The position numbers were made by a program, and so were the translations under genes. The notes below the pieces were generated by a model, which did not search any database, was not told the origin of the DNA, and saw only the letters and a list, made by a program, of their open reading frames with translations. From Candidatus Phascolarctobacterium caballi (GTDB lineage Bacteria; Bacillota; Negativicutes; Acidaminococcales; Acidaminococcaceae), in assembly GCA_018065225.1 (NCBI GenBank), contig JAGHTS010000213.1, positions 1 to 45,318 of the forward strand: DNA of 45,318 bases, written 5' to 3'. This document shows positions 5,874 to 41,679 of the stretch, one piece after another (within the stretch, counting starts at the first letter, position 1; each line of letters begins with the position of its first letter).

Positions 5874-6929
5874 ATGGCAAATGAAGTATCTATTTACGAA
5901 CCACGCACAATGGGCAGAGTTGTTCAGAAGTTGCCGCCAGTGCGTACATTTTTTAGAAGTACATTTTTCAGACACGAAGAAACATTCGTGACAAAGAGTG
6001 TTGATGTTGATTTTAGAAAGGGCAGCAGAAAGGTTGCACCTTACGTAAGCCGCCTTATCGGTGGAAAGGTAGTGCCTAACACTGGATATGAAACAAAGAC
6101 ATATACACCACCGCTTGTAGCACCAGAAAAAGTGACAACGGTTGACGACCTTTTAACAAGACGTCCGGGTGAAAGTATTTATTCTGGTAGAACGCCTGCT
6201 GAACGTGCGGTGCTTAAAATGTCAGACGACTTCAACGAATTACGTGAGCAGATTACAAGACGTGAAGAGTTGATGTGTGCGCAGGCAATATTCACTGGTA
6301 AAATTCCTATTATCGGTGACGGAGTAAATGAAGAGATTGACTTTCAGTTTACCAACAAAGAAACAATCAGCACAGCAACAAAGAAGTGGACAAACGCTGC
6401 TTCTGACCCTATCGCAGATTTGAAGCGTTGGCATGAAACTGTCCAGAAGAAAGGTTTTGTAAATTGCGATATTTGCGTTATGGGCGCAGATGTTGTAAAC
6501 GCATTTGTAAACCATGAGAAAGTACAGAAAATGCTTGATGTGAAGAATTACAATCTTGCAGTTATCCAGCCAAAGCAGCTTCCAAACGGCGTGACTTACA
6601 TTGGAACCATTCACGAACTTGGTCTTGATATTTACAAGTACAATGAATGGTATCTTGACGACTGGACCAATCCAGAGCAGCCAGAGGATAAGCCACTTGT
6701 ACCAGTAAACAGCCTTGCACTTTTAAGCACAAGCGCAGACTATTCAATGTATTACGGCGCTATCACCTTAATTGAGGAACCAAACGGAAACTTCCGCACC
6801 GTTGAGGGAAAATATGTGCCGGACACTTGGACAAAGAGAAAGCCAGCAAGAAGATTTTTGAACTTATCTTCTGCGCCTTTATGCGTACCACATGACGTGG
6901 ATAGCTGGTTTGTCGCAGTGCCTATCTAA
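5874..6929 (+). CDS. Major capsid protein (lambda gpE family)
   Basis: 'YEPRTMGRVVQKLPPVRTFFRSTFF..VDVDFRKGSRKVAPYVS' matches the N-terminal pattern of gpE-type capsid proteins. Position follows the decoration gene. Confidence 0.8.
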   Translation: MANEVSIYEPRTMGRVVQKLPPVRTFFRSTFFRHEETFVTKSVDVDFRKGSRKVAPYVSRLIGGKVVPNTGYETKTYTPPLVAPEKVTTVDDLLTRRPGESIYSGRTPAERAVLKMSDDFNELREQITRREELMCAQAIFTGKIPIIGDGVNEEIDFQFTNKETISTATKKWTNAASDPIADLKRWHETVQKKGFVNCDICVMGADVVNAFVNHEKVQKMLDVKNYNLAVIQPKQLPNGVTYIGTIHELGLDIYKYNEWYLDDWTNPEQPEDKPLVPVNSLALLSTSADYSMYYGAITLIEEPNGNFRTVEGKYVPDTWTKRKPARRFLNLSSAPLCVPHDVDSWFVAVPI

Positions 6930-7273
6930 TGGACTTCAAAGCGCAAATTGCCAGTGACATGAAAGTGTTTCACAACTGCGGAGAAATGGCAACAATGACC
7001 GATATTTGGTATCAAGGCAAGCAATATTATATTCCGATAATCATTGACCACACGGCAGCCGACGAACGGAAAAGGAAAGAGGGGGACAATGCAGAGGGAC
7101 TGTATATTGCTTCTTGCCTTGTGTATATATCACAATACGACTTGGGCTTTGTGCCTAAAAAGGGCAGAGAAATTGAGATTGACGAAGCCGGGGCGGTCAA
7201 TATGTACCGTATAACAAAAGCAGATTGCGAAGACGGGGAAATTATTCTTGAATTGGAGATGGTAGACGAATGA
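6929..7273 (+). CDS. Hypothetical protein (head completion/connector by position)
   Basis: ATG overlaps the capsid gene stop; translationally coupled within the head block. Confidence 0.45.
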   Translation: MDFKAQIASDMKVFHNCGEMATMTDIWYQGKQYYIPIIIDHTAADERKRKEGDNAEGLYIASCLVYISQYDLGFVPKKGREIEIDEAGAVNMYRITKADCEDGEIILELEMVDE

Positions 7274-7830
7274 TAGAAATAACGTCCGACACAATAGAAA
7301 GAGTAACAACCTTGCTGGCAGACGTTCCAAAGGGTGCGGAAAGAGTGTTTGCAAATGCCATGAACCGTGGTATTTCAAGAGTGAAGACGCAGGCTTTGAA
7401 GAGAACAAAGCAAGTCTACACGGTAAACAACAGCGCATTGACAGCAAATACAGCAATGAAAATAAGCAAAGCCAGCACGGGAAACCTTGCGGGCTTTGTT
7501 TCTTTTGCAGGAACAAAGCTGCCATTGTATCAATTCAAAGTTACACCAACAAAAGCCGGAACGGGAAAGCAGGTGCGGGCAGCGGTCAAAAAAGGCGGCA
7601 GCGGCACACCGTTTGAAGACGCATTTATTGCGGACATGAAGAACGGCACCGGGGTTTATGAAAGACTTACAAGAAACAGACTACCAGTTGAACAGCTGAT
7701 GGGACTTTCAACAGCGCAGATGGTGGGAAGTGATGAAGTCATAGACGGTCTGGAAAAAGAAGTTGAAGAGTTGGTGAATGAAAGAATTGTTCACGAAATG
7801 AACAGAATTTTGAATGGATATGGAGGATAA
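7270..7830 (+). CDS. Hypothetical protein (head-tail connector by position)
   Basis: ATGA overlap with the upstream gene; 186 aa. Confidence 0.45.
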   Translation: MIEITSDTIERVTTLLADVPKGAERVFANAMNRGISRVKTQALKRTKQVYTVNNSALTANTAMKISKASTGNLAGFVSFAGTKLPLYQFKVTPTKAGTGKQVRAAVKKGGSGTPFEDAFIADMKNGTGVYERLTRNRLPVEQLMGLSTAQMVGSDEVIDGLEKEVEELVNERIVHEMNRILNGYGG

Positions 7831-14803: not shown

Positions 14804-16102
14804 ATGAGTGATAAGAACATGGCACGCAGAGTTGAACTGCGGTTGAAGTTTCAAAATGTCAAGGTTCCAGCTGATATAAACAAATATTTAAGCAGTCTGA
14901 CTTTCACTGATGAAGAAGAAGACAACGCAGACGACTTACAGATTGCGTTTGATGATAGAGAAAGAAAATGGCTTGGAAGCTGGCTGGAAGTAAAACCAAC
15001 AGTAATAAAAACAACAGTGCAGGTAAACAAGCAGGTTGAAGCAGAAAAAGTGGAAAATTACGTGGTCAAAAAAGGCGACACGCTTTGGGCTATTGCTGCA
15101 AAGTATCTTGGAAGCGGCACGAAATATCCACAAATTGCACAAGAAAATAACATAAAGAACCCCAATTTGATTTATCCGGGGCAAGTATTAAAAATAACAG
15201 CCGGAGGAACGGCAACACAGACGGTAACAGAAACAAAAGAGAGTACGCAAAAAGTATCAGACCCAAAATTGATAACAGCAACTATTGTTCAGAAGAATTG
15301 GCACGACAACGGAAAAGACGCAGTGCTTGACTGCGGAACGTTTGAACTGGACAGCATAGACGCAAGCGGACCGCCTACAAAAATAACATTAAAAGGCACG
15401 TCAATTCCGTACACGTCAACAATGAGAACGTGCAAGAAGTCAAGAGCGTGGGAAAATACAACATTGCAGGTTATAGCAGAACAGCTGGCAAAAGAAAGCG
15501 CACTGAAATTGATGTACCTTGCAAGTAAAAACCCAACATACAAGCGAAAAGAGCAGGTGCAGAAGTCGGATATTGCATTTCTTCAAAAACTATGCAAGGC
15601 GTCTGGACTTGCCTTGAAAGTAACAACGCTTGCAGTGGTTATTTACGACGCAGAAGAATACGACAAAAAGCCAGCTATTAAGACTATAAAATACGGCAGC
15701 GGTGATTATTTATCATTTAAGCTGGGAACCAGTCTGCATGATACAGCATACACAAGTTGTCATGTATCATACACAGACCCAGACAGCAAAGAAACTATTG
15801 AAAGTACATACACACCAGACAGCAAAGAGGGAACCGGGCAAGTGCTTGAAGTCAACGAAAAGGTAACAAGTACGCAGGAAGCATACGAACTGGCAAAAAA
15901 GAGATTGAGAGAAAAGAACACACAGCAGTTTACAGCAAGTTTTACAATGCTTGGCGACGTGCAGCTGGTAGCAGGTGCGACGGTAAAATTAAAGGGCTTT
16001 CAAGAGTTCGACAGAAAATACAAGATAACAAAGGCAACACACAAGCTGACGGGAGGATATACAACAGCTATTGAATTAAAACAGATATTGGAGGGCTATT
16101 GA
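14804..16102 (+). CDS. Tail/baseplate hub protein (P2 gpD / XkdQ-like) with an inserted LysM motif
   Basis: 432 aa after the gpX-like gene. LysM 'YVVKKGDTLWAIAAKYLGSGTKYPQIAQENNIKNPNLIYPGQVLKI'. Confidence 0.6.
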   Translation: MSDKNMARRVELRLKFQNVKVPADINKYLSSLTFTDEEEDNADDLQIAFDDRERKWLGSWLEVKPTVIKTTVQVNKQVEAEKVENYVVKKGDTLWAIAAKYLGSGTKYPQIAQENNIKNPNLIYPGQVLKITAGGTATQTVTETKESTQKVSDPKLITATIVQKNWHDNGKDAVLDCGTFELDSIDASGPPTKITLKGTSIPYTSTMRTCKKSRAWENTTLQVIAEQLAKESALKLMYLASKNPTYKRKEQVQKSDIAFLQKLCKASGLALKVTTLAVVIYDAEEYDKKPAIKTIKYGSGDYLSFKLGTSLHDTAYTSCHVSYTDPDSKETIESTYTPDSKEGTGQVLEVNEKVTSTQEAYELAKKRLREKNTQQFTASFTMLGDVQLVAGATVKLKGFQEFDRKYKITKATHKLTGGYTTAIELKQILEGY

Positions 16103-16452
16103 TGGCAGACTTGACAGAATTAAAAAACGCAATACGAATTGGAACAGTGCAGAGCGTAAATGAAAAAGCTATGACAGCCCGTGTGAAATTCAAAGATAAA
16201 GGCGGCATTGTGTCTGGTGATTTACACATAATAAAACGCCCAGTGTATGTGCTGCCAGCAATGGAAAGCGGGCTGGAAGCACAAACGGCACAAACAAAGC
16301 TGAAATATGACTACAACGGGGAATTGCTAAAAGAAATATCGCATAAACACGACGCCTTTATATCAGCTTGGGTTCCGTCAGTAAATGACATGGTGCTTTG
16401 CATTATGCTTCCAGATGGCGACGGCGACGGCTTTATTATAGGGGAGGTGTAA
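16099..16452 (+). CDS. Baseplate spike/assembly protein (gpV / XkdR-like)
   Basis: 117 aa with ATGA overlap. 'IRIGTVQSVNEKAMTARVKFKD' resembles the gpV-type OB-fold N-terminus. Confidence 0.55.
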   Translation: MMADLTELKNAIRIGTVQSVNEKAMTARVKFKDKGGIVSGDLHIIKRPVYVLPAMESGLEAQTAQTKLKYDYNGELLKEISHKHDAFISAWVPSVNDMVLCIMLPDGDGDGFIIGEV

Positions 16453-16454
16453 GC

Positions 16455-16856
16455 GTGGCAAAAATAGGCAGCTTTGGCGACTTGGTTTTTTCTGTATCAG
16501 ACAATACAGTGAGGACATTTGACAAGCTATCATGGAAAGTATCTGCGAAGTACGCAACACACGATAGACATATAAAGCGTGATGTTATGGAGTTTTTGGG
16601 ACCAGAGCCAGCAAGCATTGATTTTCAGATGGCGTTTTCGGTGTTCCACGGCACAAACCCGCTAAACGAAATCAAAAAGCTAAATAAAATGGTAAACAAA
16701 GGCATAACAGCAAGGTTGGTGCTGGGCGGCAAGAAATACGGTTCGTACAAATGGGTGATAACTTCTGTAAGCAGCGAACTTGAAAAGTACGACAATAAAG
16801 GTAATTGCTGGGCAGCAACAGCGAAAGTGACATTAAAAGAATATCCGAAGAGGTGA
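16455..16856 (+). CDS. Tail protein (P2 gpU-like, tentative)
   Basis: GTG 16455 after GGGGAGGTG. The ORF-track start at 16398 overlaps the previous gene in another frame. Confidence 0.4.
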   Translation: MAKIGSFGDLVFSVSDNTVRTFDKLSWKVSAKYATHDRHIKRDVMEFLGPEPASIDFQMAFSVFHGTNPLNEIKKLNKMVNKGITARLVLGGKKYGSYKWVITSVSSELEKYDNKGNCWAATAKVTLKEYPKR

Positions 16857-16862
16857 TGAATT

Positions 16863-17192
16863 ATGGACGTTATAAGGGGCGACGGGTCATTGCTAAAAGA
16901 AATAGACCTTGCACCAGCTAACGAACATCAAGAAGTGCTGCAAAATGTGGCAGTAATTCTTGATACGGTGCAAAATTCATGCCCTATGTTCCGTGATTTG
17001 GGATTGCCGGGCGGTTCATTACACAGACCGCAGAATGTAGTTGAAAATATGCTGGTTGGCTACATATACGACCAGATAGAGGAATACGAACCACGGGCAG
17101 TAGTGGCAGACATACAATTTGAACATGACGCAGCGACGGGGCGCACAATACCGTTAGTATATTTGCAGGAGGTGGAAACAGACAATGAGTGA
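16863..17192 (+). CDS. Baseplate wedge protein (gpW/gp25-like, XkdS-like)
   Basis: 109 aa immediately before the Baseplate-J-like gene, which it overlaps by 8 nt. Confidence 0.6.
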   Translation: MDVIRGDGSLLKEIDLAPANEHQEVLQNVAVILDTVQNSCPMFRDLGLPGGSLHRPQNVVENMLVGYIYDQIEEYEPRAVVADIQFEHDAATGRTIPLVYLQEVETDNE

Positions 17193-18327
17193 TAGAAAAT
17201 ACCCAGACATTGACTTTGTGGAAACTGACACAGAAACCATTGAAAGCAGCTTAATTGCATTATATGAAAGTCTGGTGCAGCAGGTGCCGGGGCGTGAAAG
17301 ATACAAACTGTACCCAGCTTCACCAGAAAGACTGTTCATATCATGGATAACGTCAGTGATTGTTCAACAACGTGTATTGATAAATGAAACGGCAAAGAAA
17401 AACGTACCGAGATATGCAGACGGTGAATATTTGGACAGCTTGGCAGAATTATTCAAAGACATTGAAAGGCTGCCAGCAAGTCCGGCGTCAGCAATATTCC
17501 GCTTTTACATATCAGAAGCGCAGAAACAATCAATAATCATTCCGAAAGGCACCAGAATTTCTTTTGACGGTGCCATTTTATTTGAAACAACAGAAAATCT
17601 GGAAATAAAAGCAGGGAACACATACGGCGACATTGAGGGTGTATGCACTACGGCGGGGGAGGTTGGAAACAATCTGGCAGCAGGGCAAGTAAAAGAAATT
17701 GTTGACCTATACGACTACTACCAGAAAGCGGAAAACATAACAGCAACAAGCGGAGGTGCGGAGCAGGAAGACGACGCAAGCTATTATGAAAGAATGCGTG
17801 AGAGCATGGAGAGTTTCAGCACAGCGGGTCCAGTAAACGGCTATATATATTTTACAAAGTCGGTATCAGCGGCAGTTTCAGACGTGGCAGTGACAAGCCC
17901 GCAGGCTTGCGAAGTTGACGTGCGGGTGCTTTTACAGAACGGGGAACAACCGACAGAAGCAGTATTGAAAGAGATTGAAGACGCTTTGAACGCTTCTGAT
18001 ATAAGACCACTGACAGACAGAGTGAAAGTATCGGTTCCACAAACGGTGCCTTTTGACGTGGACGTGACATTTTATATATCACAGCCGAATGCAGCAAGTG
18101 CAGCAATCATTGAAAGCACAGCACGGCAGGCGGTAGAAGATTATATATCATGGCAGCAAAGCAAGATGGGAAGAGATATAAACCCGTCATACTTGACAGC
18201 AAAACTGATGGAAGCAGGCGTGAAGCGTGTTGAAGTCAGAAAGCCAGTATATACGGTTGTTGATGATATAAAAGTTGCAAAGCTGGGAAGTAAAACGGTA
18301 TTGAATGGAGGTATTGAGAATGTCTAA
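17185..18327 (+). CDS. Baseplate J-like protein
   Basis: 380 aa. Size, position and overall pattern match P2 gpJ / XkdT. Confidence 0.75.
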   Translation: MSDRKYPDIDFVETDTETIESSLIALYESLVQQVPGRERYKLYPASPERLFISWITSVIVQQRVLINETAKKNVPRYADGEYLDSLAELFKDIERLPASPASAIFRFYISEAQKQSIIIPKGTRISFDGAILFETTENLEIKAGNTYGDIEGVCTTAGEVGNNLAAGQVKEIVDLYDYYQKAENITATSGGAEQEDDASYYERMRESMESFSTAGPVNGYIYFTKSVSAAVSDVAVTSPQACEVDVRVLLQNGEQPTEAVLKEIEDALNASDIRPLTDRVKVSVPQTVPFDVDVTFYISQPNAASAAIIESTARQAVEDYISWQQSKMGRDINPSYLTAKLMEAGVKRVEVRKPVYTVVDDIKVAKLGSKTVLNGGIENV

Positions 18328-19321
18328 AACCATCTATGATACAGACTTTACAACATACCTGCCGGAAGCATTAAAGAAAGACCCTAAAATGGTAGCGCTG
18401 GCAAAGGCTGCAACGGACGAACTATTGAAAGCGTCTGGGCTGGTTGACGACGTTTTAATATATTCCAGATTTGATGAACTACCAGAAGAACTGGTGGACA
18501 TATTGGCGTATGACCTGCACGTAGACTGGTACGACTTCAATTATCCATTAGAAGCAAAACGGGACTTGGTAAAAAACAGCGTAAAGGTGCATAAGAAGAT
18601 GGGCACAAAATACGCCATTGAAACTGCACTGGGCAGTTTGTTTTCTGGAAGTGAGGTTGAAGAGTGGTTCCAGTACAACGGAGAACCGGGACATTTTCAC
18701 ATAATACTTGACGTAACAAACCAGCGAATTACAGCAAGCTATCAAGAAATCATAAGAGCGGTGAAGCTATATAAAAGGCTATCGGCACACATGGACGAAT
18801 TGACCTATCAAGGAAGTATTCACACAGAAATACGGACGCACGGCGAATATTACAGATACAGCACGCCTTTGACTGGAAGATTGAATGCGGGCACATATCC
18901 ATACAGAAACATGAAAGGAAAGCAAGACAATATAACGGTCATTGTTGGAAGCGACAACGCAGGCTTTATCTTCCATGCGCCAGCAGCGGGCACAATGCCA
19001 TACAGAAATACTGTATTCGGTAACAGCACGGCGCATATCGACGCAGAAACGGCGCTAAATGTGTTTGAGTATAGAAATACACCAGCAGGAAAGAAAAAGG
19101 CGGGAGAAACGCCACAGAGAAGCCAGAAAGGGCAAACAAACAGTGCGGAAGTAACAATGCAAGACGCAGCAGAAGCATTCACATATAAAACCGCAGCAAC
19201 CGGGACGGTTCCAGAGAGAAGCACAACGCAAAGAACGCAGGGTGGAGCGGTGGAAAATTCCGTGCAAGCAACGGGTTATTCATACACGGTAAAATCGTGT
19301 GGAAGCACCCGGAAATTATAA
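18320..19321 (+). CDS. Baseplate/tail protein I-like (P2 gpI / XkdU-like) with a C-terminal extension
   Basis: ATG 18320 after GGAGG. 'ELPEELVDILAYDLHVDWYD' is gpI-like. The C-terminal part carries reiterated 'G-T-x-P-Y-R-N' motifs. Confidence 0.6.
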   Translation: MSKTIYDTDFTTYLPEALKKDPKMVALAKAATDELLKASGLVDDVLIYSRFDELPEELVDILAYDLHVDWYDFNYPLEAKRDLVKNSVKVHKKMGTKYAIETALGSLFSGSEVEEWFQYNGEPGHFHIILDVTNQRITASYQEIIRAVKLYKRLSAHMDELTYQGSIHTEIRTHGEYYRYSTPLTGRLNAGTYPYRNMKGKQDNITVIVGSDNAGFIFHAPAAGTMPYRNTVFGNSTAHIDAETALNVFEYRNTPAGKKKAGETPQRSQKGQTNSAEVTMQDAAEAFTYKTAATGTVPERSTTQRTQGGAVENSVQATGYSYTVKSCGSTRKL

Positions 19322-19336
19322 AGGAGGTGAGAAGCT

Positions 19337-19648
19337 ATGTTGACGCAGAATGCAATCAATGATTTTAAGAATTTCATTGATAATACGATTGCATACGCAA
19401 AAGTCACGGTGAACGGTGCCACAAGTGAAAAAGTGATACACCGCAGGGAACGTCTGGCAGATGGCAGGGTTGCTGTATATATCCAGATAACACCAGAGAT
19501 AAGCGGAGCAGCAACCGTGCAGAGAGTGCAGCTATACAACAAGCATAAAGAGTTGTGGGCTGACAAAGCGGTAAATATTCCGCTTAACAATGTGCAAGAG
19601 GGTGTTTTATACCGTTTTGTATTCGACTTTGTAGAAAAGGAGGTGTAA
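19337..19648 (+). CDS. Hypothetical tail-fibre-associated protein
   Basis: ATG after AAGGAGGTGA; 103 aa. Confidence 0.4.
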   Translation: MLTQNAINDFKNFIDNTIAYAKVTVNGATSEKVIHRRERLADGRVAVYIQITPEISGAATVQRVQLYNKHKELWADKAVNIPLNNVQEGVLYRFVFDFVEKEV

Positions 19649-19652
19649 AGGA

Positions 19653-20147
19653 ATGTACGAACCTAAATTGTGGCAAGACCACGTAACGGAATATGAAGAC
19701 CGTTACACTGAAAGCAGAAATGATGATGGAACTATCACCCACACACCAGTTGAGGGCGAAGTTATCCAGCAGGGAACCCCACAGAACGCAAAGAACTTCA
19801 ACCACATGGAGCAGGGCATATCTAATGCAACAGAGTTGGCGGCGCTTCTGACAATTACAACCATTCACGGGCAGCAGGCAATCAAAGATTTGCAGGGAGA
19901 AACAAAGAGTGTTTCAATGAGCAATTCGCAGCAGTACCCGTTCAACAATTCAAAAACAACAGTTGCTTTGTCGGAAGAAAGAAACCATCTTGACTACACC
20001 GTGGAAGCGGAAGTGGAAGAGTGCAACGGCGGCTTTGTCGGTGATATTGTCGTTTCAGAAAAGCTATTAAATGGCTTCAAGATTGCATACACTGGCAGCG
20101 CAACCAGCGTGAAAGTAAAAGTATATGTGAAAGGCGGGTTTTATTGA
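19653..20147 (+). CDS. Tail fibre/fibre-base protein (tentative)
   Basis: ATG after AAGGAGGTG. The N-terminus 'YEPKLWQDHVTEY..GTPQNAKNFNHMEQGI' is common in Gram-positive phage fibre proteins. Confidence 0.45.
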   Translation: MYEPKLWQDHVTEYEDRYTESRNDDGTITHTPVEGEVIQQGTPQNAKNFNHMEQGISNATELAALLTITTIHGQQAIKDLQGETKSVSMSNSQQYPFNNSKTTVALSEERNHLDYTVEAEVEECNGGFVGDIVVSEKLLNGFKIAYTGSATSVKVKVYVKGGFY

Positions 20148-20335
20148 TGGCAGCAGGCGTAATTATTAAGGACGAAGCGAAAAAGCAGCACGAAAATGAA
20201 ATTTTACGTTCATTTGGAGTGCAGCAGGGACAAGCAACAGCCGCACAGAGAGAAGCGGCAGAGGTAATTGCAGCCCGCACAAGCGAGGTTGCAGGAATGC
20301 AGAATGGAGGTAAGAAATATTATGGCTTCTACTAA
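20144..20335 (+). CDS. Hypothetical small protein
   Basis: 63 aa; start overlaps the upstream stop. Confidence 0.35.
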   Translation: MMAAGVIIKDEAKKQHENEILRSFGVQQGQATAAQREAAEVIAARTSEVAGMQNGGKKYYGFY

Positions 20336-20678
20336 CAAAATTATTGTAATTGAGAAGACACCGGGAACACACATTGAATATGCGCTTTCTGGTGGTAAGA
20401 AAATCACTTTTGGTGATGATGAATTGACAATCAATCTTGCAAGCCGTGAAAGAGATTATGAAGTTTCATTGGACATTTGTATTGATGAAGAAGACGGCGT
20501 GGTAATTGGCACTGGTGGCAAGGCGCAGAAGTATGCTGCACAAGTTATAATTCCAGCACGCAGATATGATGTAATCGAAGACGGGGAAGACGAGCAGGGA
20601 AACCCAAGAGAAGTGCCAGTGCCTATTCCTTTTGATATGTCATTATGTACACTTATTTTATGGGGATTGGAGGTATAA
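20322..20678 (+). CDS. Hypothetical protein upstream of the DGR target
   Basis: ATG 20322 after GGAGGTAAG; 118 aa. Confidence 0.45.
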   Translation: MASTNKIIVIEKTPGTHIEYALSGGKKITFGDDELTINLASRERDYEVSLDICIDEEDGVVIGTGGKAQKYAAQVIIPARRYDVIEDGEDEQGNPREVPVPIPFDMSLCTLILWGLEV

Positions 20679-20681
20679 AAA

Positions 20682-21722
20682 ATGTCTAATTTTGATGATT
20701 TAGCAATGGCGGTAGCGTCCTTTGGAGGAAACAACGCCGTAAAGTTTGATGATTTGGGTATGCCATCAATTATGGTGGGTATTCCTAAAATGAAGTATTC
20801 TGACCTTATCACCGGGGGCACACAAGAAACATTGCCTTGGTGGATTGTTGATGGAGTAGAAAAGGAAGTTATCTGGGTATCAAAATACATTAACTGCGTT
20901 GTAAACGACAGAGCGTATTCGTTGCCTATGAAAGACCCTAAATGCTATATCAATTTTGACCAAGCATTAGCAGCTTGTAGAAAGAAAGGCGCTGGCTGGC
21001 ACTTAAACCAGAACGGCGTATTTGCAGCAATCAACCTTTGGTGCCAGCGTAACGGCTTTATCCCAAGAGGTAACACAAACTGGGACAGAAGCTATGTAAA
21101 GGCATACGAAAAGGGTATCAACACATACATTGACGGTTCGCACGGCGGCGGTAGAACTGCAACTGGTTCTGGTCCTATGACATGGAACCACGACGGAACA
21201 CCAGCGGGAATTGCTGACCTTTGCGGCAACTGCTGGGAGTGGGTAGCTGGTATGCGTATCAAAAATGGTGAAATTCAGATTATCCCATACGGTAACAGCA
21301 TGAAGTCAGATTGCGACATGAGCGACGCAAGCACAGAATGGAAAGCAATCAAGCCGGACGGTTCACTTGTGGCACCGGGAACAGCAGGAACACTGCATTA
21401 TGATTATGTTTCCGGCAAAATCGTTATCAACACAAGCACAAGCGCAACCGCAAGTTGGAATACACCTTTTGGAAATGTGGCAGCAGCAAGTGGCGTAACA
21501 ATTCCACAGATTGCAGTTGCAGCTGGTTTGATTAAGGATAGCGCAGACAACTACGGCACAAGCGGTCACCAGCAGTATGTCAATACTGACGGTGAGCGTC
21601 TGCCTCTCCGGGGTTCGAGCTTCAGCGGCACTTCCAGCGGTGGTGGCGCTGCGTTGCTCTTGCACCACGGGCGTACTCTCAGCAACAGCTACGTTTCGTT
21701 CCGCTCCGCTTTATATGAGTAA
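20682..21722 (+). CDS. DGR target protein, FGE-sulfatase/C-type-lectin-fold receptor-binding candidate
   Basis: 'AGIADLCGNCWEWVAGM' is a GN[VC]WEW-type FGE/CLec motif. The C-terminal 37 codons are the variable repeat. It sits at the distal end of the tail-fibre block. Confidence 0.85.
   Translation: MSNFDDLAMAVASFGGNNAVKFDDLGMPSIMVGIPKMKYSDLITGGTQETLPWWIVDGVEKEVIWVSKYINCVVNDRAYSLPMKDPKCYINFDQALAACRKKGAGWHLNQNGVFAAINLWCQRNGFIPRGNTNWDRSYVKAYEKGINTYIDGSHGGGRTATGSGPMTWNHDGTPAGIADLCGNCWEWVAGMRIKNGEIQIIPYGNSMKSDCDMSDASTEWKAIKPDGSLVAPGTAGTLHYDYVSGKIVINTSTSATASWNTPFGNVAAASGVTIPQIAVAAGLIKDSADNYGTSGHQQYVNTDGERLPLRGSSFSGTSSGGGAALLLHHGRTLSNSYVSFRSALYE
21601..21711 (+). repeat. DGR variable repeat (VR)
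   Basis: Gap-free 111-bp alignment to 22317-22427 (offset 716) with 14 mismatches, each opposite an A in the TR. VR ends 11 nt before the stop codon. Confidence 0.9.
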
Positions 21723-21748
21723 CTGGGAACTGGGCACAGATAAACTGC

Positions 21749-21770
21749 GGGGATTGCGGCAGCAATCCCC
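21749..21770 (+). promoter_or_regulatory. Perfect 9-bp stem / 4-nt loop hairpin downstream of VR (DGR target-recognition-type element)
   Basis: 'ggggattgc' - 'ggca' - 'gcaatcccc', 38 nt after the VR end. No T-run follows, so it is not a terminator. Confidence 0.6.
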
Positions 21771-21802
21771 ATATAAAAATATTGTGAAAAGGTGGTTGAA
21801 AT

Positions 21803-22252
21803 ATGCCAGAAGATACAGCAGAACAGTTGCCCAAGCTGGATAATGTGTGCGACAATGCAACACCAGAAGACTTCAAAATGAAAAACAAAGTCTATGAGTT
21901 GCTAAAGTATGCAGGACCACAGCTGGAAGAGTTTCCACGGGCAAAACGTGAACTTGCCAGAAAAATTGATGAAACAATGCTGGAAGTGTTGCGCTTGGTG
22001 GTAACGCTGGAAAATAAGCACTATAAGAAAACCACGCTTGGTGACTTGGACAATGAACTTGACGTGCTGCGGCACCTTGTCAGATTGGCGGCAGACGCAG
22101 ACTACACAAGAAGCAAGAAACCATGTTTGCCAATCAAGAAATATGAAATGATGGCAAGATACATCAATGAAATAGGGAACATGATTGGTGGATATTATAA
22201 GTCACTGAATGGCAGCCCGCAGAGTAGCGGAAACAATGCCAAAAAGAAATGA
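21803..22252 (+). CDS. avd: Accessory variability determinant (Avd-like helical bundle)
   Basis: 149 aa, basic and helical. Motif 'YELLKY..FPRAKRELARKIDETMLEVLRLVV..LDVLRHLVRLA'. Lies between target and TR. ATG follows AAGGTGG. Confidence 0.7.
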   Translation: MPEDTAEQLPKLDNVCDNATPEDFKMKNKVYELLKYAGPQLEEFPRAKRELARKIDETMLEVLRLVVTLENKHYKKTTLGDLDNELDVLRHLVRLAADADYTRSKKPCLPIKKYEMMARYINEIGNMIGGYYKSLNGSPQSSGNNAKKK

Positions 22253-22254
22253 TA

Positions 22255-22279
22255 AAAAGCAGGGTAAAACCTGCTTTTT
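22255..22279 (+). terminator. Intrinsic terminator between avd and TR
   Basis: 'aaaagcagg' - 'gtaaaa' - 'cctgctttt' followed by a T-run. Confidence 0.6.
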
Positions 22280-22316
22280 GTATTTGGGGAATAAGCCGTT
22301 AATAGAGGACTTGCCG

Positions 22317-22427
22317 TGCCTATCCGGGGTTCGAGCTTCAACAACACTTCCAACGGTGGTGGCGCTGCGTTGAACTTGAACAACGAGCGTACTAACAGCA
22401 ACAACAACGTTTCGTTCCGCTCCGCTT
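22317..22427 (+). repeat. DGR template repeat (TR)
   Basis: Non-coding copy of VR with 26 adenines. Read in the VR frame it holds 10 AAC codons plus ATC and GAG. Confidence 0.9.
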
Positions 22428-22692
22428 CACCCCATTTTGCCAGTAGTCGTGCCCATACGTGGACACGTCCAGTGCGCTTGGGTTAAAGGGGCTTATTTCC
22501 ATTCCAAAGGGGGACCAGAACAGCTGGGAACCGTAGGAAAAAGATTGAATTGCCGTAACGATAGTTAGTAAGTAGCAAAGCTGCTGAAAGTCAGTACCGG
22601 GAAACTGAATGTATATATCACGTTTGGACTGCGTAGACCCGCAGTTTGATTTGTACGGCGCTTATTTTGGTTAGTTAAGGAGGGAAAAGCAA
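22317..22692 (+). ncRNA. Putative DGR template RNA (TR plus 265-nt spacer up to the RT start)
   Basis: No plausible ORF. Several local stems, e.g. 'actgcg'..'cgcagt'. Position matches the TR-spacer RNA of characterised DGRs. Confidence 0.4.
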
Positions 22693-23790
22693 ATGCAGAC
22701 AATAAAAAATATTTTCCCCATGATATATGACTTTGAAAATCTGTTCAATGCTTATAAAGCCGGGATAAAGTGCAAAAGATACCGGGAAGACGTAATGCGT
22801 TATACGGATAAGCTGGAAGAAAACTTGATTGAGTTGCAAAACGAACTTATCTGGAAAACCTACACAGTAGGGAGATACAACATATTTTATGTGTACGAAC
22901 CTAAAAAGCGCATGATTATGTCATTGCAGTTCAAAGATAGAGTGGCACAGCACGCCATATATAGGCAGCTGAACCCGTATTTTGAAAAGCAGTTTATACA
23001 TGACAGCTACGCTTGCAGAGTGGGAAAAGGGACGCACAAAGCAGTCAACCGCTTGCATAATTGGTTGAAGCAGACTGACAGAAAACCGCAACGCTATTAT
23101 TACTTAAAGCTGGACGTATCAAAGTATTTTTACAGAATAGACCATGAAATTTTGATGAATATTTTGCGGAAAAAGATTGCTGATGAAGATTTGTTGCACG
23201 TCTTGTCAGTGATTATAAACTGCGAAGAAACAAAATTTGGTCTTCCAATGGGTGCAGACATTGGGGACGTGGCGTTTGATGAATTGCTGGGAGAAGTTGG
23301 GCTGCCTATTGGCAATTTGACTTCACAAATGTTCGCAAATCTATACTTGAACGAACTTGACCAGTTCTGCAAACACAAATTGCACCTGCATTATTACATA
23401 CGCTATATGGACGACATAATAATACTGCATAAAGACAAAAAGTACCTTGAAAAAGTAAAAAGGAAAATTGCAGAGTTTCTGGAAAGTGAACTGCATTTGC
23501 AGCTAAACAAAAAGACTTGCATTAGACCAACCAGCATGGGCATTGAGTTTGTGGGCTTCCGTATCTGGTCAACACATATAAAGTTGCGTAAGAAGACAGC
23601 AAAGAAGCTGAAAAGACGCTTGCAATATATGTTTGCAGCGTATGCAGCGGGAGAAATTGACAAAGATACACTGGATAGGTCAGTTGCTTCATATCGTGGA
23701 ATTTTGAAGCATTTTAACAGTTACGGTCTGCGCCAAAGCCTTAACGAAATTTATGTAAAGGAGGTGACGCAGAATGGAACAGAGTTTTGA
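22693..23790 (+). CDS. DGR reverse transcriptase
   Basis: ATG after TAAGGAGGG. 'YIRYMDDIIIL' (YMDD) and 'LPIGNLTSQMFANLYLNELD' (DGR-type GxxxSQ motif). 365 aa with no maturase or endonuclease domains. Confidence 0.9.
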   Translation: MQTIKNIFPMIYDFENLFNAYKAGIKCKRYREDVMRYTDKLEENLIELQNELIWKTYTVGRYNIFYVYEPKKRMIMSLQFKDRVAQHAIYRQLNPYFEKQFIHDSYACRVGKGTHKAVNRLHNWLKQTDRKPQRYYYLKLDVSKYFYRIDHEILMNILRKKIADEDLLHVLSVIINCEETKFGLPMGADIGDVAFDELLGEVGLPIGNLTSQMFANLYLNELDQFCKHKLHLHYYIRYMDDIIILHKDKKYLEKVKRKIAEFLESELHLQLNKKTCIRPTSMGIEFVGFRIWSTHIKLRKKTAKKLKRRLQYMFAAYAAGEIDKDTLDRSVASYRGILKHFNSYGLRQSLNEIYVKEVTQNGTEF

Positions 23791-24037
23791 AAGAGAAGTG
23801 CTTGACAGATTAAAGACAATCGAAATCAAACTTGACGGCTACGGGGACGTAAAAGCCAAAGTCTATGAGAATGAGCGCAAAATACTTTTGCACGAAAGCG
23901 AAATCAAAGACATACGGCAGGACTTTGAAAAGCAGCAAGAAGAAACACGCTGGCTGAAAAGAACAGTAATTGCAGCAATAATTACCGGGCTTATTGGCAT
24001 TCTTGTTGCGTTTTTAAGGGTTGGAATTGGAGTATAG
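23774..24037 (+). CDS. XhlA-like lysis-associated membrane protein
   Basis: 87 aa with a coiled-coil N-half and one C-terminal TM segment 'VIAAIITGLIGILVAFL'. Overlaps the RT gene end by 17 nt. Confidence 0.5.
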   Translation: MEQSFEREVLDRLKTIEIKLDGYGDVKAKVYENERKILLHESEIKDIRQDFEKQQEETRWLKRTVIAAIITGLIGILVAFLRVGIGV

Positions 24038-24051
24038 GAGGAAAAGGCGAA

Positions 24052-24435
24052 ATGAAATACTTATTGTTTTTCGTTATCGGCTTTCTGGCAGCATTCACAC
24101 TGTTTGTGATATATAACCTGCCTGCATTAAGGCTGAAACGAAAGAAGAGAAAAGAAGAATTGGAAAAGAACCCAGACAGAAAAACCAGCGCAACAAAGAT
24201 TGTGTTGTTTTCTATACTTTTAACCTACTACATAGCATTTGCGGTGGGTGTATGGGCTGTATTGACACAAGACGTGTACCAGCTGTCAGTATTACTGACA
24301 TTTGTTGGAGGGGTGACAGCTGCGGCAGTGGCTTTCTATTGCTGGAAAGCAAAAGCGGAAAATCTATTGAAAATTAAAGCTGCACACCCGGACTTATGCG
24401 GCTCATTGTCTGATTTTTCCAATATGTCACAGTAA
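24052..24435 (+). CDS. Multi-pass membrane protein (holin-like)
   Basis: 127 aa with about 3-4 hydrophobic segments, immediately upstream of the endolysin. Confidence 0.5.
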   Translation: MKYLLFFVIGFLAAFTLFVIYNLPALRLKRKKRKEELEKNPDRKTSATKIVLFSILLTYYIAFAVGVWAVLTQDVYQLSVLLTFVGGVTAAAVAFYCWKAKAENLLKIKAAHPDLCGSLSDFSNMSQ

Positions 24436-24453
24436 TGACGGGAGGTGCAAGAA

Positions 24454-25929
24454 ATGGCATTGAACGGAAATACAAACGAAGAAAAGATTTGGAATTTTCT
24501 AAAATCAAAAGGGCTTAACAGCTTTGCTGTTGCAGGATTGATGGGCAACTTATTTGCGGAAAGTGGATTGAACCCAAAGAACCTGCAAAACAGCTATGAA
24601 AAGAAACTGGGACACACTGACGAAACATACACGGCGGCGGTTGATAGCGGGAAATATAAAAACTTCAAAAGCGACGCCGCCGGATATGGTCTGGCGCAGT
24701 GGACATACGGCACAAGGAAAGCGGCACTGCTGGAATACGCAAAAAGCGGTGGAAAGTCGGTGGGCGACCTTGAAATGCAGCTGGGGTTCCTTATGAAAGA
24801 ATTGACGGGCAATTATGCAGGCGTTTTAGCTGAAATAAAAAAAGCAACAAGCGTTTTGCAGGCTTCAAATACAGTATTGATGAAATTTGAACGCCCGGCA
24901 GACCAGAGCGAAGCTGTACAGAAGAAGCGTGCTGCGTATGGTCAAACATATTATGACAAGTACGCAGCTGCAAAAAACAATACACAGAATGGAGGTACAA
25001 GCAATATGAATGTATCAGAAGTTAGAAAGAAGTTTGCAGCAATTGCAACAAAGTACAAGGGCGTGAAAGAGGGAAGCGCCCAGCACCACGCAATCATTGA
25101 CAAGTACAATGCGCACAAGCCACTTGCAAGAGGGTACAAAGTAACCTATACGGACGCTTGGTGCGCCACATTTGCTTCTATGGTTGCCATTGAAGCTGGT
25201 TACACAGATATTATACCTACTGAATGCGGCTGCAATGCACAGATTGCATTATGGCAGAAGATGGGCAGATGGTGCGAGAATGACGCAAAGGTGCCAGAAC
25301 CGGGCGACTATATTTATTATGACTGGGACGACAACGGAAATGGAGATTGCACGGGTGGTTCGGAACACGTTGGAATTGTAACAGCCGTAAACGGCAATAC
25401 AATTACAGTAACAGAGGGCAACAAGTCAAACGCAGTAGGCGACAGAACATTGCAGGTCAACGGGCGCTATATCAGAGGTTACGGCGTGCCGGACTTCTCA
25501 AAGAAAGCAACTGCGGACAAGCCAAAGCAGGAAGAGCAGAAGCCGGACGACAACACAGAATTTGCACTGGGCGAAGTGGTAATGTTCAACGGCAATACAC
25601 ATTACACAAGCGCAAATGCAACAGACGGCAAAAGCTGCAAGCCGGGTAAAGCAAAGGTAACACAGAAATATAACGGCAAACACCCTTATCATGTAGTTAG
25701 AGAGGGCGGCGACGGTGGCAGCGTTTGTGGCTGGGTAAATGCTTCTGATTTATCACACATCAACAGCGCAGCGGAAAGAACATACACAGTCAAGAGCGGT
25801 GACAGCCTTTGGGCTATTGCAGCAAAGCAGCTGGGCGACGGTTCCAGATACAATGAAATTAAGACTATGAATGGTCTTTCAAGTAACACAATTTACGCAG
25901 GGCAGGTATTGAAATTGCCTACAAAATAA
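24454..25929 (+). CDS. Multidomain endolysin (lysozyme-like + CHAP/NlpC + SH3-like + LysM)
   Basis: ATG 24454 after GGGAGG. 'AGLMGNLFAESGLNP..YGLAQWT' is lysozyme-like. 'DAWCATF..EHVGIV' gives a Cys/His peptidase. C-terminal LysM 'YTVKSGDSLWAIAAKQLGDGSRYNEIKTMNGL'. Confidence 0.85.
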   Translation: MALNGNTNEEKIWNFLKSKGLNSFAVAGLMGNLFAESGLNPKNLQNSYEKKLGHTDETYTAAVDSGKYKNFKSDAAGYGLAQWTYGTRKAALLEYAKSGGKSVGDLEMQLGFLMKELTGNYAGVLAEIKKATSVLQASNTVLMKFERPADQSEAVQKKRAAYGQTYYDKYAAAKNNTQNGGTSNMNVSEVRKKFAAIATKYKGVKEGSAQHHAIIDKYNAHKPLARGYKVTYTDAWCATFASMVAIEAGYTDIIPTECGCNAQIALWQKMGRWCENDAKVPEPGDYIYYDWDDNGNGDCTGGSEHVGIVTAVNGNTITVTEGNKSNAVGDRTLQVNGRYIRGYGVPDFSKKATADKPKQEEQKPDDNTEFALGEVVMFNGNTHYTSANATDGKSCKPGKAKVTQKYNGKHPYHVVREGGDGGSVCGWVNASDLSHINSAAERTYTVKSGDSLWAIAAKQLGDGSRYNEIKTMNGLSSNTIYAGQVLKLPTK

Positions 25930-28268: not shown

Positions 28269-29639
28269 CTACCCAAAAACAACACCCGTGATATTCTGGT
28301 CATTATCAATGCGTATTTCTTTAATGACAGAGCGCCAAAGCGTGCGTTTTTCCTCACGGGTCAAAGTATCATAAATGCTTTTGAAATCACTATCAAGAAG
28401 TTTACGAACAGCGGAAAAGTCCGGGGGCGGTTCAATGTTGTTGTCTGGTATTTGGTTCAAAGCAGACATATATATTTCATAGTCCCTTTTGTATTCCTCA
28501 ATGTCTATAAGGTCGTTTACATACAATTCTTTAAGTTTACCAAGTTTTCTTTTCAAAGTGGCTTTGTCAGTTCCGGCAGCAGTTCTTTTCTTCTTTGCAG
28601 CTTCAACCTCCCATTCCAACTGGCAGCGCTCCAATTCTTCTGCGAGGTGTTCAAACAACCACGCTTCAACGTGACTTTCACGGGCTGAATGATTGTGACA
28701 GCAACGCCCACGCTGGAAATGCTGGTTGCAACGGTAATAATAAATGCCACGGCTGATGTAGCCGCACAATTTATGGTTGCATTCAGAGCAAGTCAAAATG
28801 GAAGTGAATATATAAACATTGCCAGCTGGCGCAGAACGTGCATTGCGCTTCAATAACAGCTGTACACGGTCAAATTGTTCTTGCGATATGATAGGCTGAC
28901 AAAAATTAGAATTATATCTGCCGCCACGGTCATATACACCAGTGTACAACTTTTCTTGCAACATACGGCGAAAAGTAGCGTCGCACCAATTAAGACCGTA
29001 AGTTTCACGAATATATTTGACGGTCCCACGCTGGGACACGGTAGCTTCAAAATGATTGAATGCGTCACAAACAATGGCTGCGTCTTCTGGTACAACTTCA
29101 AGTCGTTTTTCAGAGTTGACACGATAGCCGCAAGGGGCTGAACCAGAAACGACAGTGCCATGCGCAACTTTGCTGTCAAATACAACGTCTATACGTTCAC
29201 CGCAAATATCGGCTTCATTCTGGGCAATAGACAATTTGACATTGATATACAAGCGCCCATTTGCAGTGCTTGTGTCATATTCTTCATCAATAGTCTTCCA
29301 GCCGCAGTTGTGGGCTTCCAGAACCTCCATAACTTTGTAATAATCAGCAACAGAACGAAACCAGCGGTCAAGACGGCAAAACAAAAGCACGTCTATTTCA
29401 TCACGCTTTACAGCGCCAAGCATTTTTTGAAATTCGGTTCGCTTGTGCATATTCTTTCTGGCGGTCTTTGCTGCGTCAATATAAACACCGACTATCACCC
29501 AGCCCCGTTCCCGTGCGTAGGCTTCCAGTCGTTCTTGCTGGGCTTCCAGTGACAGACCTTTTATTTTCTGTTCCTCACCAGAAACACGTATATACAATGC
29601 GACCCGGACAAGCGCCGGGGCAATATCTTTCTTTTTCAC
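28269..29639 (-). CDS. int: Large serine recombinase (integrase)
   Basis: GTG start. 'VALYIRVSGEEQ' holds the catalytic Ser. Resolvase domain plus recombinase domain plus zinc ribbon 'CSECNHKLCG..YYRCNQH', then a coiled-coil C-terminus. Confidence 0.9.
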   Translation of the reverse strand: MKKKDIAPALVRVALYIRVSGEEQKIKGLSLEAQQERLEAYARERGWVIVGVYIDAAKTARKNMHKRTEFQKMLGAVKRDEIDVLLFCRLDRWFRSVADYYKVMEVLEAHNCGWKTIDEEYDTSTANGRLYINVKLSIAQNEADICGERIDVVFDSKVAHGTVVSGSAPCGYRVNSEKRLEVVPEDAAIVCDAFNHFEATVSQRGTVKYIRETYGLNWCDATFRRMLQEKLYTGVYDRGGRYNSNFCQPIISQEQFDRVQLLLKRNARSAPAGNVYIFTSILTCSECNHKLCGYISRGIYYYRCNQHFQRGRCCHNHSARESHVEAWLFEHLAEELERCQLEWEVEAAKKKRTAAGTDKATLKRKLGKLKELYVNDLIDIEEYKRDYEIYMSALNQIPDNNIEPPPDFSAVRKLLDSDFKSIYDTLTREEKRTLWRSVIKEIRIDNDQNITGVVFG

Positions 29640-31811: not shown

Positions 31812-32786
31812 GTGAATAGAAAAGGAAGTGCAGTGGTGTTTATCAGAGAAAAGAAGATAGACTGCACCGATTATAGAGAAGTGGACATAATACCCAGAAC
31901 GGAGAGAGCAGAGCAAGCAAGCAAAGGAAAGAGGGGAAAGAGAAGAAAGACACCAGAACCAAAGCAAAAAGACTTGAACGACAAGAACGCTAAACGGTAT
32001 CTGGTACAACTGGGCAATGGCAACTTTCATGTAGGAGATTTGCACACATCATGTACATACAGTGCAGAGAACCTGCCGGGCAGTGTAGAAGAAGCAGAAA
32101 ACATAGTGAGAAACTACCTGCGCCGCATTGATTACCGAAGAAAGAAACTGGGGCTGGAAGCCTTGAAATATATATTGGTAACTGAATATAAGTTCAACAA
32201 GGACGGGGAAAGTATCAAAAGAATACACCATCATATCATTATGAACGGTGGATTAGACCGTGACGAAGTGGAACTAATGTGGACAATGCAGCGCATAAAT
32301 TGGAATAAGATTGATAACCCAGAGTATAAAGCAGGGATAAAGCAAATAGGCTGGGTAAATGCAGATAGACTGCAAATGAATGAAAACGGTATTGAGGGTC
32401 TATGCAAATACATAATCAAGGACCCGCAGGGAAAGAAAAGGTATTCAAGCAGCCGAAATCTGGAAAGACCAGAAACAACAAAGAGTGATGGGGACGAAAA
32501 GACCAGCCGTGACCAGAGTTTGTGGAAGCATAGCAGAAACCTTACAGCACCGACAGAGAAGTGCAACGACCATAAGTACACCAGAAAGAAAGTGGAAAGG
32601 TTGGCAAAGTCACCAGACAACGGACTTGCGGAGTTCCAGAAGATATACAGTGACTACAATATAACGTCAGTTGAAGCGGTCTATTATGAACAGACGGGCT
32701 GGCATATTTACTTGAAAATGTGGAAAAAGCCAAAACCAAAAGGCAAGACAAAAGGAGGGCAAAAGAAATGCAGACTAAAACATTAA
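31812..32786 (+). CDS. Rolling-circle (HUH) replication initiator-like protein
   Basis: Ordered motifs 'YILVTEY', 'RIHHHIIMNG' (HUH) and 'GLCKYIIKD' (YxxK). The true start may be GTG 31833/31836, after AAAGGAAG. Confidence 0.55.
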   Translation: MNRKGSAVVFIREKKIDCTDYREVDIIPRTERAEQASKGKRGKRRKTPEPKQKDLNDKNAKRYLVQLGNGNFHVGDLHTSCTYSAENLPGSVEEAENIVRNYLRRIDYRRKKLGLEALKYILVTEYKFNKDGESIKRIHHHIIMNGGLDRDEVELMWTMQRINWNKIDNPEYKAGIKQIGWVNADRLQMNENGIEGLCKYIIKDPQGKKRYSSSRNLERPETTKSDGDEKTSRDQSLWKHSRNLTAPTEKCNDHKYTRKKVERLAKSPDNGLAEFQKIYSDYNITSVEAVYYEQTGWHIYLKMWKKPKPKGKTKGGQKKCRLKH

Positions 32787-40520: not shown

Positions 40521-40766
40521 ATGGAAAAAACATATTTTGAAGAAATCAAGTTAAGGTTTATCAAAGCTGCAATGTGGACGAATGACAATGCAAAAGACGG
40601 CGACGTGAACAGAAACCATGTAAATTATGGTTGCTGCACCTGCTGGGCACAAGTGCTGCAAGATATGGGACACGAAACAAAAGTGCCAGTATGGGAAGAT
40701 AACGGCTGCTTGAAAATTCCATTTATCGAAATAGATGGACAAAAAGTGCTTGAATTTGAAAAATAG
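40521..40766 (+). CDS. Hypothetical protein
   Basis: ATG 40521 after GGAGG; 81 aa. Its stop codon overlaps the first base of the tRNA. Confidence 0.45.
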   Translation: MEKTYFEEIKLRFIKAAMWTNDNAKDGDVNRNHVNYGCCTCWAQVLQDMGHETKVPVWEDNGCLKIPFIEIDGQKVLEFEK

Positions 40767-40838
40767 CACGGTTGGCGCAATGGATAGCGCAGCAGCTTCC
40801 GAAGCTGACGGCTGCGGGTTCAAGTCCCGCACCGTGCA
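40766..40838 (+). tRNA. tRNA-Arg (anticodon CCG)
   Basis: Hand-folded cloverleaf. Acceptor GCACGGT/ACCGTGC, D stem GCGC/GCGC, anticodon stem with 4 of 5 pairs and loop TTCCGAA, 5-nt variable loop. T stem GCGGG/CCCGC with TTCAAGT loop, discriminator A. No encoded CCA. Confidence 0.85.
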
Positions 40839-40887
40839 TTACTGGGAAACAAAGAGAACAAAGACCAGATACAAGGAGGAATACCGA

Positions 40888-41649: not shown

Positions 41650-41679
41650 CCAATTCGGACACGTTAGGAGGGAAGAAAG

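Follow-up and report, generated by a model that had tools for sequence, protein, structure and literature searches.

A well-formed diversity-generating retroelement in the tail-to-lysis region of a temperate phage genome

Diversity-generating retroelements (DGRs) are numerous, a survey count cited in recent structural work standing at ~31,000 (bioRxiv 10.1101/2023.10.23.563531), and several described phages carry one. The best-known reference is Bordetella phage BPP-1, whose DGR reads mtd-avd-TR-brt, TR being the template repeat. The nearest described relative of the phage considered here is Clostridium phage Saumur (ON453901), an induced prophage of Enterocloster clostridioformis; its record annotates Avd and a reverse transcriptase (RT), and the paper naming it has no mention of a DGR (PMC10197239). 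The DGR of the Faecalibacterium phage FP_Lagaffe and its Mtd-like target have been published (PMC11792537). Here we describe the DGR at positions 20682-23790 of a 45,318-nucleotide (nt) stretch of DNA (contig JAGHTS010000213.1, hereafter the window), which is a temperate phage genome. An initial annotation of the letters alone had proposed a four-part DGR, and open reading frame (ORF) listing and repeat finding located every part where it had been placed. The cassette runs along the + strand in the order target gene with its variable repeat (VR), avd, TR and RT, and we regard it as very likely to be a complete DGR in the late (tail-to-lysis) block of a Saumur-like temperate Lachnospiraceae myophage. 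The lines of evidence set out below, namely adenine-specific VR/TR mismatches, a curated Avd model, the RT motif, a target of C-type-lectin (CLec) type, a hairpin with a GRNA loop and structured RNA flanking the TR, agree on a DGR. It is a textbook element, real but ordinary, and another instance of a module known from several described phages. Its core parts are as follows.

20682..21722, + strand: DGR target gene, 346 amino acids (aa), predicted TaqVP-like CLec fold (phmmer, PDB 5vf4; PHROG 2889)
21601..21711, + strand: VR, target codons 307-344, 87% identity to the TR
21803..22252, + strand: avd, 149 aa (PF22296, NF033474, PHROG 3206)
22317..22427, + strand: TR, 26 adenines (repeat comparison)
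22693..23790, + strand: DGR reverse transcriptase, 365 aa (RVT_1; PDB 8ub7; IGNLTSQ, YMDD)

With the BPP-1 element the window shares gene order, adenine-only differences between the repeats, an AAC-rich TR and Avd, whereas the phage around it is a P2-type myovirus with a lambda-type head and a Gram-positive Lachnospiraceae host. Saumur is far closer, although it is a separate species-level phage: the target is 65-66% identical, Avd 73% and the RT 78%, with ~74% nucleotide identity over 40% of the left arm, and the window TR holds 26 adenines against 23-25 in Saumur-type loci. The same module occurs in at least 64 IMG/VR contigs (~65-77% target identity) and at 16 loci of species-representative genomes, mostly of Lachnospiraceae; in Saumur and in these contigs and loci the module, the TR, the RNA of the TR-RT spacer, the hairpin after the VR and an array of AACTG pentamers are conserved. 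A near-identical copy of the window phage was found neither in IMG/VR nor in JGI metagenomes. FP_Lagaffe, BalMu-1 and Dulem virus 37 repeat the order baseplate J, I, small ORFs, target, avd, TR, RT, holin/XhlA and endolysin, at 39-41% target and 50-53% RT identity, and each has a tetraloop hairpin and a pentamer array after the VR. Their hosts and backbones are different (BalMu-1 is a Mu-like phage of Bacillus), and their VR/TR mismatches fall at adenines in 13 of 13 cases in FP_Lagaffe, 10 of 11 in BalMu-1 and 8 of 9 in Dulem virus 37. A Lagaffe-like prophage has been reported with two VRs, against one in the window. The initial annotation had presented the phage chassis as a departure from earlier DGRs; this does not hold, the module of baseplate, target, DGR and lysis genes being already present in Saumur, FP_Lagaffe, BalMu-1 and Dulem virus 37.

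The repeats carry the clearest signature. VR (21601-21711) and TR (22317-22427) form a 111-nt direct repeat, 87% identical and 716 nt apart, in which similarity stops abruptly at both sides. In a base-by-base comparison all 14 mismatches lie at TR adenines, where the VR has G six times, C five times and T three times; with 26 adenines in the 111-nt TR, the hypergeometric probability of 14 random mismatches all falling on A is 4.6e-11. The VR had been assigned to the last ~40 codons of the 346-aa target and the TR, 111 bp long, to the sequence downstream of avd, and both assignments stand, the VR being in frame as codons 307-344. Every one of the 26 TR adenines occupies codon position 1 or 2 of the VR frame, which contains ten AAC codons in the TR. 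Sixteen VR codons are mutable, a stop codon is unreachable by any substitution of an A, and the reachable protein variants number ~2.4e15. The window contains neither a second VR nor another TR-like copy or a paralogue of the target, the second place returned by tblastn being the translated TR. A 56-aa ORF with a GTG start spans the TR (22316-22486) and amounts to the TR read in the VR frame; its counterpart is annotated as hypothetical in the Saumur and Dulem virus 37 records, and the annotation of such a TR-spanning ORF is probably an artefact.

Polymorphism had been expected at positions templated by TR adenines and nowhere else. We examined this at the level of the family, in 47 loci with both repeats (the window and 46 relatives), where 573 VR/TR mismatches lie at TR adenines and 13 elsewhere. 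The 47 loci hold 22 distinct TRs and 43 distinct VRs, and groups of nine, seven and six loci have an identical TR with different VRs that differ only at adenine positions. The VR is diversified across this phage family.

The protein components point the same way. Avd matches the Pfam bAvd family PF22296 (E 9.6e-20, 71.5 bits against a cut-off of 40), the NCBIfam model NF033474 (DivGenRetAVD; 85.3 bits against a curated cut-off of 80) and PHROG 3206, 'Avd protein of DGR', and its N-terminus is conserved from residue 1 in Saumur. The proposal of a basic Avd-like ORF of 149 aa was right as to identity and holds for charge only mildly, at an isoelectric point of 8.7. One result counts against the assignment: by sequence, Avd matched no solved structure.

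The RT matches Pfam RVT_1 and has YMDD at residues 238-241 and, as its DGR-typical motif, IGNLTSQ at 206-212, so that both motifs named in the initial annotation of this 365-aa protein are in place; the latter fits the DGR signature [I/V/L]GxxxSQ and not QGxxxSP. Its best relative in the PDB is the 328-aa RT of entries 8ub7-8ube (174 bits, E 5e-50), which we read from its length and aligned residues as the Bordetella DGR RT (bRT). RT residues R73 and I206 align with bRT R74 and I181, both shown to promote adenine mutagenesis (PMC7826257), and the window thus shares with BPP-1 the signature motif and the equivalents of these two residues. By profile and motif, the enzyme would be classed as a DGR-type RT. 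An origin in a group II intron, a retron or an anti-phage defence system, with the 111-nt repeat as an unrelated duplication, is effectively refuted. The top NCBIfam score is indeed that of the group II maturase model (130.6 bits), and NCBIfam gave no DGR-RT match for comparison, but the cut-off of that model is 300, and retron St85 (57 against 235) and Drt3a (61 against 200) likewise fall far short. In the PDB search, group II RTs reached 75 bits or less (E 7e-20) and retron-type RTs 70-75 bits (E 2e-18), far from the 174 bits of bRT, and the proposed placement of the RT by profile among DGR, retron and group II enzymes comes out on the DGR side. Rfam found no group II intron or retron RNA, the sole family reaching its gathering threshold in the window being a tRNA, and the exclusively adenine mismatches and the adjoining avd gene also count against it.

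Is the element active today in this exact phage? Two Logan contigs of run SRR10505694 (L086 and L002) are 100% identical to window positions 15912-21656 and 21676-24748, and the gap between them comprises 19 nt inside the VR (21657-21675), with both edges at positions templated by TR adenines. No exact 31-nt match exists between VR and TR. If the Logan assembly used k=31, which we take to be the case, the repeat itself should not break the graph, and VR polymorphism is the simplest explanation of the gap. The contigs therefore suggest, indirectly, that the VR is polymorphic in the SRR10505694 sample, which would fit current activity. Two points weigh on the other side: both gap edges would fall at A sites by chance with P ~0.05, and an assembly gap is indirect evidence. 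Phages of ~99.5% identity occur in runs SRR28408238 and SRR28408217. Scans of IMG/VR and JGI metagenomes with exact flanks and the exact TR returned no variant VRs of this phage, and exact-protein look-ups yielded nothing but Logan contigs ending within the VR or ahead of it. Eight public contigs of related phages (L036, L037, L038, L041, L045, L054, L067 and L080) likewise terminate within the VR or right at its first position, consistent with assembly breaks at a hypervariable site.

The same data bear on whether the DGR is a recently inactivated fossil, whose VR/TR differences would date from earlier retrohoming, with diversification now at an end. Three close relatives have lost TR and/or RT sequence: in L019 (6134-6715) a deletion fuses avd residue 96 to RT residue 258, in L058 (6136-6510) the TR and RT are entirely gone, and in L011 (~6762-7447) the spacer is fused to RT residue 187. 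The hairpin and the pentamer array survive in all three, as do the target gene and a VR that has diverged. These deletions are independent, so the DGR is dispensable and decays in some lineages. We nevertheless judge a fossil improbable here, since the cassette ORFs are all intact, each with a Shine-Dalgarno sequence (GGAGG upstream of the target start, AAGGAGG upstream of the RT), the catalytic and mutagenesis residues of the RT are conserved, the RNA helices and the target hairpin are intact, and the SRR10505694 assembly breaks within the VR at adenine-templated sites.

Three features of the window concern the RNA around the template.

22252..22281, + strand: terminator-like hairpin with T-run over the avd stop codon (RNAalifold, pair counts, terminator scan)
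22286..22297, + strand: 5' strand of a 12-bp long-range duplex enclosing the TR (pairs with 22490-22501)
22428..22692, + strand: structured TR-RT spacer RNA, 265 nt (Rfam RT-14 match at 22428-22600; covariation)

We folded 22 non-redundant relatives with RNAalifold and then counted pairs against controls in which the partners had been slid. Strong conservation covers the 265-nt spacer and ~65 nt upstream of the TR. For the 53 pairs of the TR-flanking RNA the proportion of paired cells is 98.3%, whereas the slid controls give 40-50%; compensatory changes occur in 20 of the 53 pairs and in 1-4 pairs of the controls. Immediately 3' of the TR come a P1 helix (22430-32/22480-82) and a stem-loop (22446-22469) with a UACG loop and four covarying pairs, resembling an Avd-binding element, followed by a conserved single strand, UUAAAGG (22483-89). 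The 12-bp duplex (22286-22297/22490-22501) brackets the TR, with compensatory changes in five of its 12 pairs and 99.6% of cells paired. Further into the spacer lie a UUCC/GGAA stem (22502-05/22536-39) and a long-range stem (22551-57/22654-60) that encloses a hairpin (22591-94/22605-08). The hairpin at 22252-22281 comprises 11 pairs, four with compensatory change, and was also flagged by a terminator scan; bordered by A- and T-runs, it has the appearance of an intrinsic terminator for both directions, set a short way upstream of the TR RNA, and it may either end transcription or form part of the DGR RNA.

Cryo-EM of the Bordetella DGR ribonucleoprotein revealed an Avd-binding stem-loop, a template:primer duplex, an 11-bp avd:Sp 'cPRT Stop' duplex and an RT-binding stem, and similar RNA elements were reported in 207 of 278 Avd-containing DGRs (bioRxiv 10.1101/2023.10.23.563531). 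Both the window and BPP-1 have a post-TR stem-loop and an 11-12-bp duplex of avd-proximal RNA with the spacer, and by position and architecture the window elements probably correspond to parts of the Bordetella particle, the 12-bp duplex resembling the avd:Sp 'cPRT Stop' duplex. The spacer is longer, at 265 nt against ~140, and resembles Rfam RT-14 rather than RT-10. The whole RT-14 model (RF02921; 1-144) aligns with spacer nucleotides 1-173 (22428-22600), the match beginning right at the TR boundary; model and spacer have in common the first long stem-loop, the conserved strand UUAAAGG...UUCC and a hairpin on the 3' side. In the paper describing the RT motifs, RT-10 was the only one connected with a DGR, and the rest were left unassigned, with the speculation that further links would emerge (PMC5737381); our alignment suggests that the orphan motif RT-14 is a DGR spacer RNA. 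These RNA assignments have points against them. The RT-14 score is 45.2 bits (E 5e-5), below the gathering threshold of 48.1, and no match at gathering appears in 12 relatives, which score lower than the window; moreover, the comparison with slid controls is somewhat favourable, because the structure was derived from the same alignment in which pairs were counted.

Three further features lie at or near the 3' junction of the VR.

21692..21711, + strand: A-free VR 3' end, resembling an initiation of mutagenic homing (IMH) site, same as the TR 3' end (direct comparison)
21721..21747, + strand: AACTG pentamer array, VR-specific (family conservation)
21749..21770, + strand: GC-rich hairpin/cruciform, 9-bp stem, loop GGCA (family stem changes; GRNA consensus)

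The last TR adenine is at 22407, and the 20 A-free, fairly GC-rich nucleotides that close the VR (21692-21711) are identical to the end of the TR. The IMH/IMH* mismatch of BPP-1 is thus missing, and the classical distinction between recipient and donor is not visible here, which is a point against the DGR reading. Identical IMH/IMH* pairs have been reported in some DGRs, and Wu et al. reasoned that recognition must then reach further downstream (PMC5758913). Downstream of the VR, and with no equivalent after the TR, stands the 9-bp hairpin with the GGCA loop (21749-21770). Of 29 unique sequences from the family, 28 preserve a 4-nt loop on a stem of 7 bp or more; the stem arms come in 11 versions, with compensatory exchanges between family members, and 27 of the 29 loops agree with GRNA. 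The experimentally defined DGR target hairpin has a GC stem of 7-10 bp and a 5'-GRNA loop and lies 4-34 bp from the VR (PMC3240598), and BPP-1 likewise has a post-VR GC hairpin with a GRNA tetraloop. In matching this published consensus, 21749-21770 is a good candidate for the DGR target-recognition hairpin, although it differs from that of BPP-1 in beginning 37 nt past the end of the repeat, with the AACTG array in between.

That array occupies 21721-21747, between the VR stop codon and the hairpin, its pentamers, the third of them degenerate (CACAG), being spaced at intervals of 7, 7 and 8 nt. In 25 unique sequences of the family, conservation reaches 90% or more at the AACTG positions but not in the spacers that separate them, equivalent arrays exist in FP_Lagaffe (AATCTG), BalMu-1 (ATCTG) and Dulem virus 37 (AACTG), and the array is absent after the TR. 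With VR and TR sharing their final 20 nt, nothing at the 3' junction is specific to the recipient apart from the array and the hairpin. We raise, as a tentative idea, that this A(A/T)CTG array, present in four divergent DGR lineages of Bacillota phages whose two repeats have identical 3' ends, is an undescribed cis element that marks the VR as recipient in place of the IMH/IMH* distinction. Base pairing between the array and the DGR RNA was considered and dropped, the RNAduplex z-scores being inconsistent over five lineages (-2.5 to +1.4).

What the element diversifies is suggested by homology to a protein of known structure. Target residues 5-331 align with residues 11-370 of the PDB 5VF4 chain (phmmer against the PDB, E 5.5e-55), which is TaqVP, the variable protein that belongs to a DGR in a Thermus aquaticus prophage, a single-domain protein of the FGE subtype (formylglycine-generating enzyme) of the CLec fold and a monomer in the crystal (PMC6328139). 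The two are homologous over their full length and carry a 40-residue C-terminal VR on the same scaffold (ERLPxRG...AAL...R), the position of an ATC-encoded Ile included; they differ in that sequence similarity is only moderate, with several indels, and the hosts belong to different phyla. The target also matches PHROG 2889 (E 1e-114). The assignment from the motif GNCWEWV to an FGE-type CLec protein, made in the initial annotation, draws support from the solved TaqVP structure and none from Pfam, in which no family, FGE-sulfatase included, matches the target even at E<=10. That negative counts on the other side, and a single-sequence AlphaFold model proved unusable (predicted local distance difference test score 31). 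On balance, homology supports a CLec-fold variable protein of the FGE subtype, the VR predicted to form its C-terminal ligand-binding surface. By the same comparison the target is TaqVP-like rather than Mtd-like: it lacks the N-terminal beta-prism and beta-sandwich trimerisation domains of Mtd, and no sequence match to Mtd appeared in the PDB at E<=1.

The role of this protein must be judged largely from its neighbourhood. Two conserved companions lie upstream of the target gene.

19653..20147, + strand: 164-aa ORF (PHROG 9010), co-occurs with the target gene
20268..20678, + strand: ORF of ~113-136 aa, start uncertain (PHROG 8734 over aa 26-135), adjoins the 5' side of the target and is inherited together with it

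The head genes of the phage encode a lambda-type terminase, a portal, a ClpP protease and capsid E, and the tail genes a P2-type tube, gpD, gpU, gpJ and gpI. The cassette had been described as directly following the fibre genes; this part of the description fails, in that no recognisable tail-fibre gene lies upstream and the interval between gpI and the target holds four small ORFs of unknown function. Homologues of the 164-aa ORF occupy the equivalent place in Saumur (75% identity), Dulem virus 37, FP_Lagaffe (gp24) and BalMu-1 (gp48) (E 1e-30 to 1e-33); the ORF has no match in Pfam or the PDB and may be a fibre or adaptor component. The ORF of ~113-136 aa has homologues in Saumur, Dulem virus 37, FP_Lagaffe (gp25) and BalMu-1 (gp49). 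Matches of the small upstream ORFs to a 38-residue stretch of RecA and to a designed helical bundle were regarded as chance, and Pfam and the PDB otherwise gave nothing meaningful for them. From gpI to the lysis block no gene resembles a classical fibre, which by position leaves only the target and these two companions as candidates for host recognition.

From this gene position it is plausible that the target is the distal receptor-binding protein and that its diversification switches tropism as in BPP-1. TaqVP is monomeric, unlike the trimeric Mtd, which weighs against such a role and leads to another possibility: a functional DGR whose diversified protein is not the primary receptor-binding protein, being instead an accessory adhesin for glycans or other environmental ligands, or a protein outside the virion. 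Homology to a single-domain crystal monomer throughout the target, without the trimerisation domains of Mtd or any sequence-level match to it in the PDB, would fit an accessory protein; the function of such phage DGR targets has been published as unknown (PMC11792537), and Hoc-like Ig decoration proteins serve as targets in other phage DGRs. We hold this to be the less probable role, though one to be taken seriously, because the target gene follows directly after baseplate J/I and precedes the lysis genes, because target and companions form a block conserved over four divergent phage lineages, and because no other fibre or receptor-binding candidate is visible between baseplate and lysis genes.

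On the 3' side, the end of the RT gene overlaps xhlA by 17 nt, and XhlA is followed by a membrane protein and a lysozyme-CHAP-LysM endolysin (24445-25929). A LysM domain also occurs in the gpD-like baseplate hub protein (14804-16102). The window further encodes a minus-strand serine recombinase, Rep, SLT, a C5 methylase and ParA/ParB. The large serine recombinase (28269-29639, - strand), the Rep-like gene (31812-32786) and the ParA/ParB-like pair (40735-43035, + strand) constitute gene sets for integration and for plasmid-like maintenance. The 5' end of the longest ParA ORF contains a tRNA-Arg(CCG) (40766-40838, Rfam 64.9 bits), and ParA probably starts downstream of this tRNA, because the Pfam domain begins at residue 52. 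No terminal repeats of the window were found, and a promoter scan around the cassette gave matches no commoner than in shuffled sequence.

On the preferred reading of an intact DGR, a sequence of events can be proposed, its order borrowed by analogy from the Bordetella system. A transcript running from the 3' end of avd through the TR and across the 265-nt spacer would fold, forming the post-TR stem-loop and the 12-bp duplex that brackets the TR, and this RNA would be bound by an RT-Avd complex. The RT would then copy the TR into cDNA from the 3' boundary of the TR, misincorporating opposite adenines. The VR, which makes up the final 40 codons of the 346-aa TaqVP-like CLec protein, would be replaced by the cDNA; the VR would be marked as recipient by the downstream GGCA-loop hairpin and possibly also by the AACTG array. 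In this way 16 codons, ten of them AAC, would be randomised without the creation of stop codons.

The window DGR is one more well-formed example, and its practical value is as a clean annotated reference for the Saumur/Lagaffe-type module in phages of Lachnospiraceae. Three points have some value of their own: the RT-14 assignment, the covariation in favour of a BPP-1-like RNA, and the pentamer array. Covariation supports the RNA architecture seen by cryo-EM in Bordetella being kept in phages of Gram-positive gut Bacillota, and the AACTG array could explain directionality when IMH and IMH* are the same. Should the target indeed be the receptor-binding protein, prophages of this kind can readjust which hosts they recognise among abundant gut commensals.

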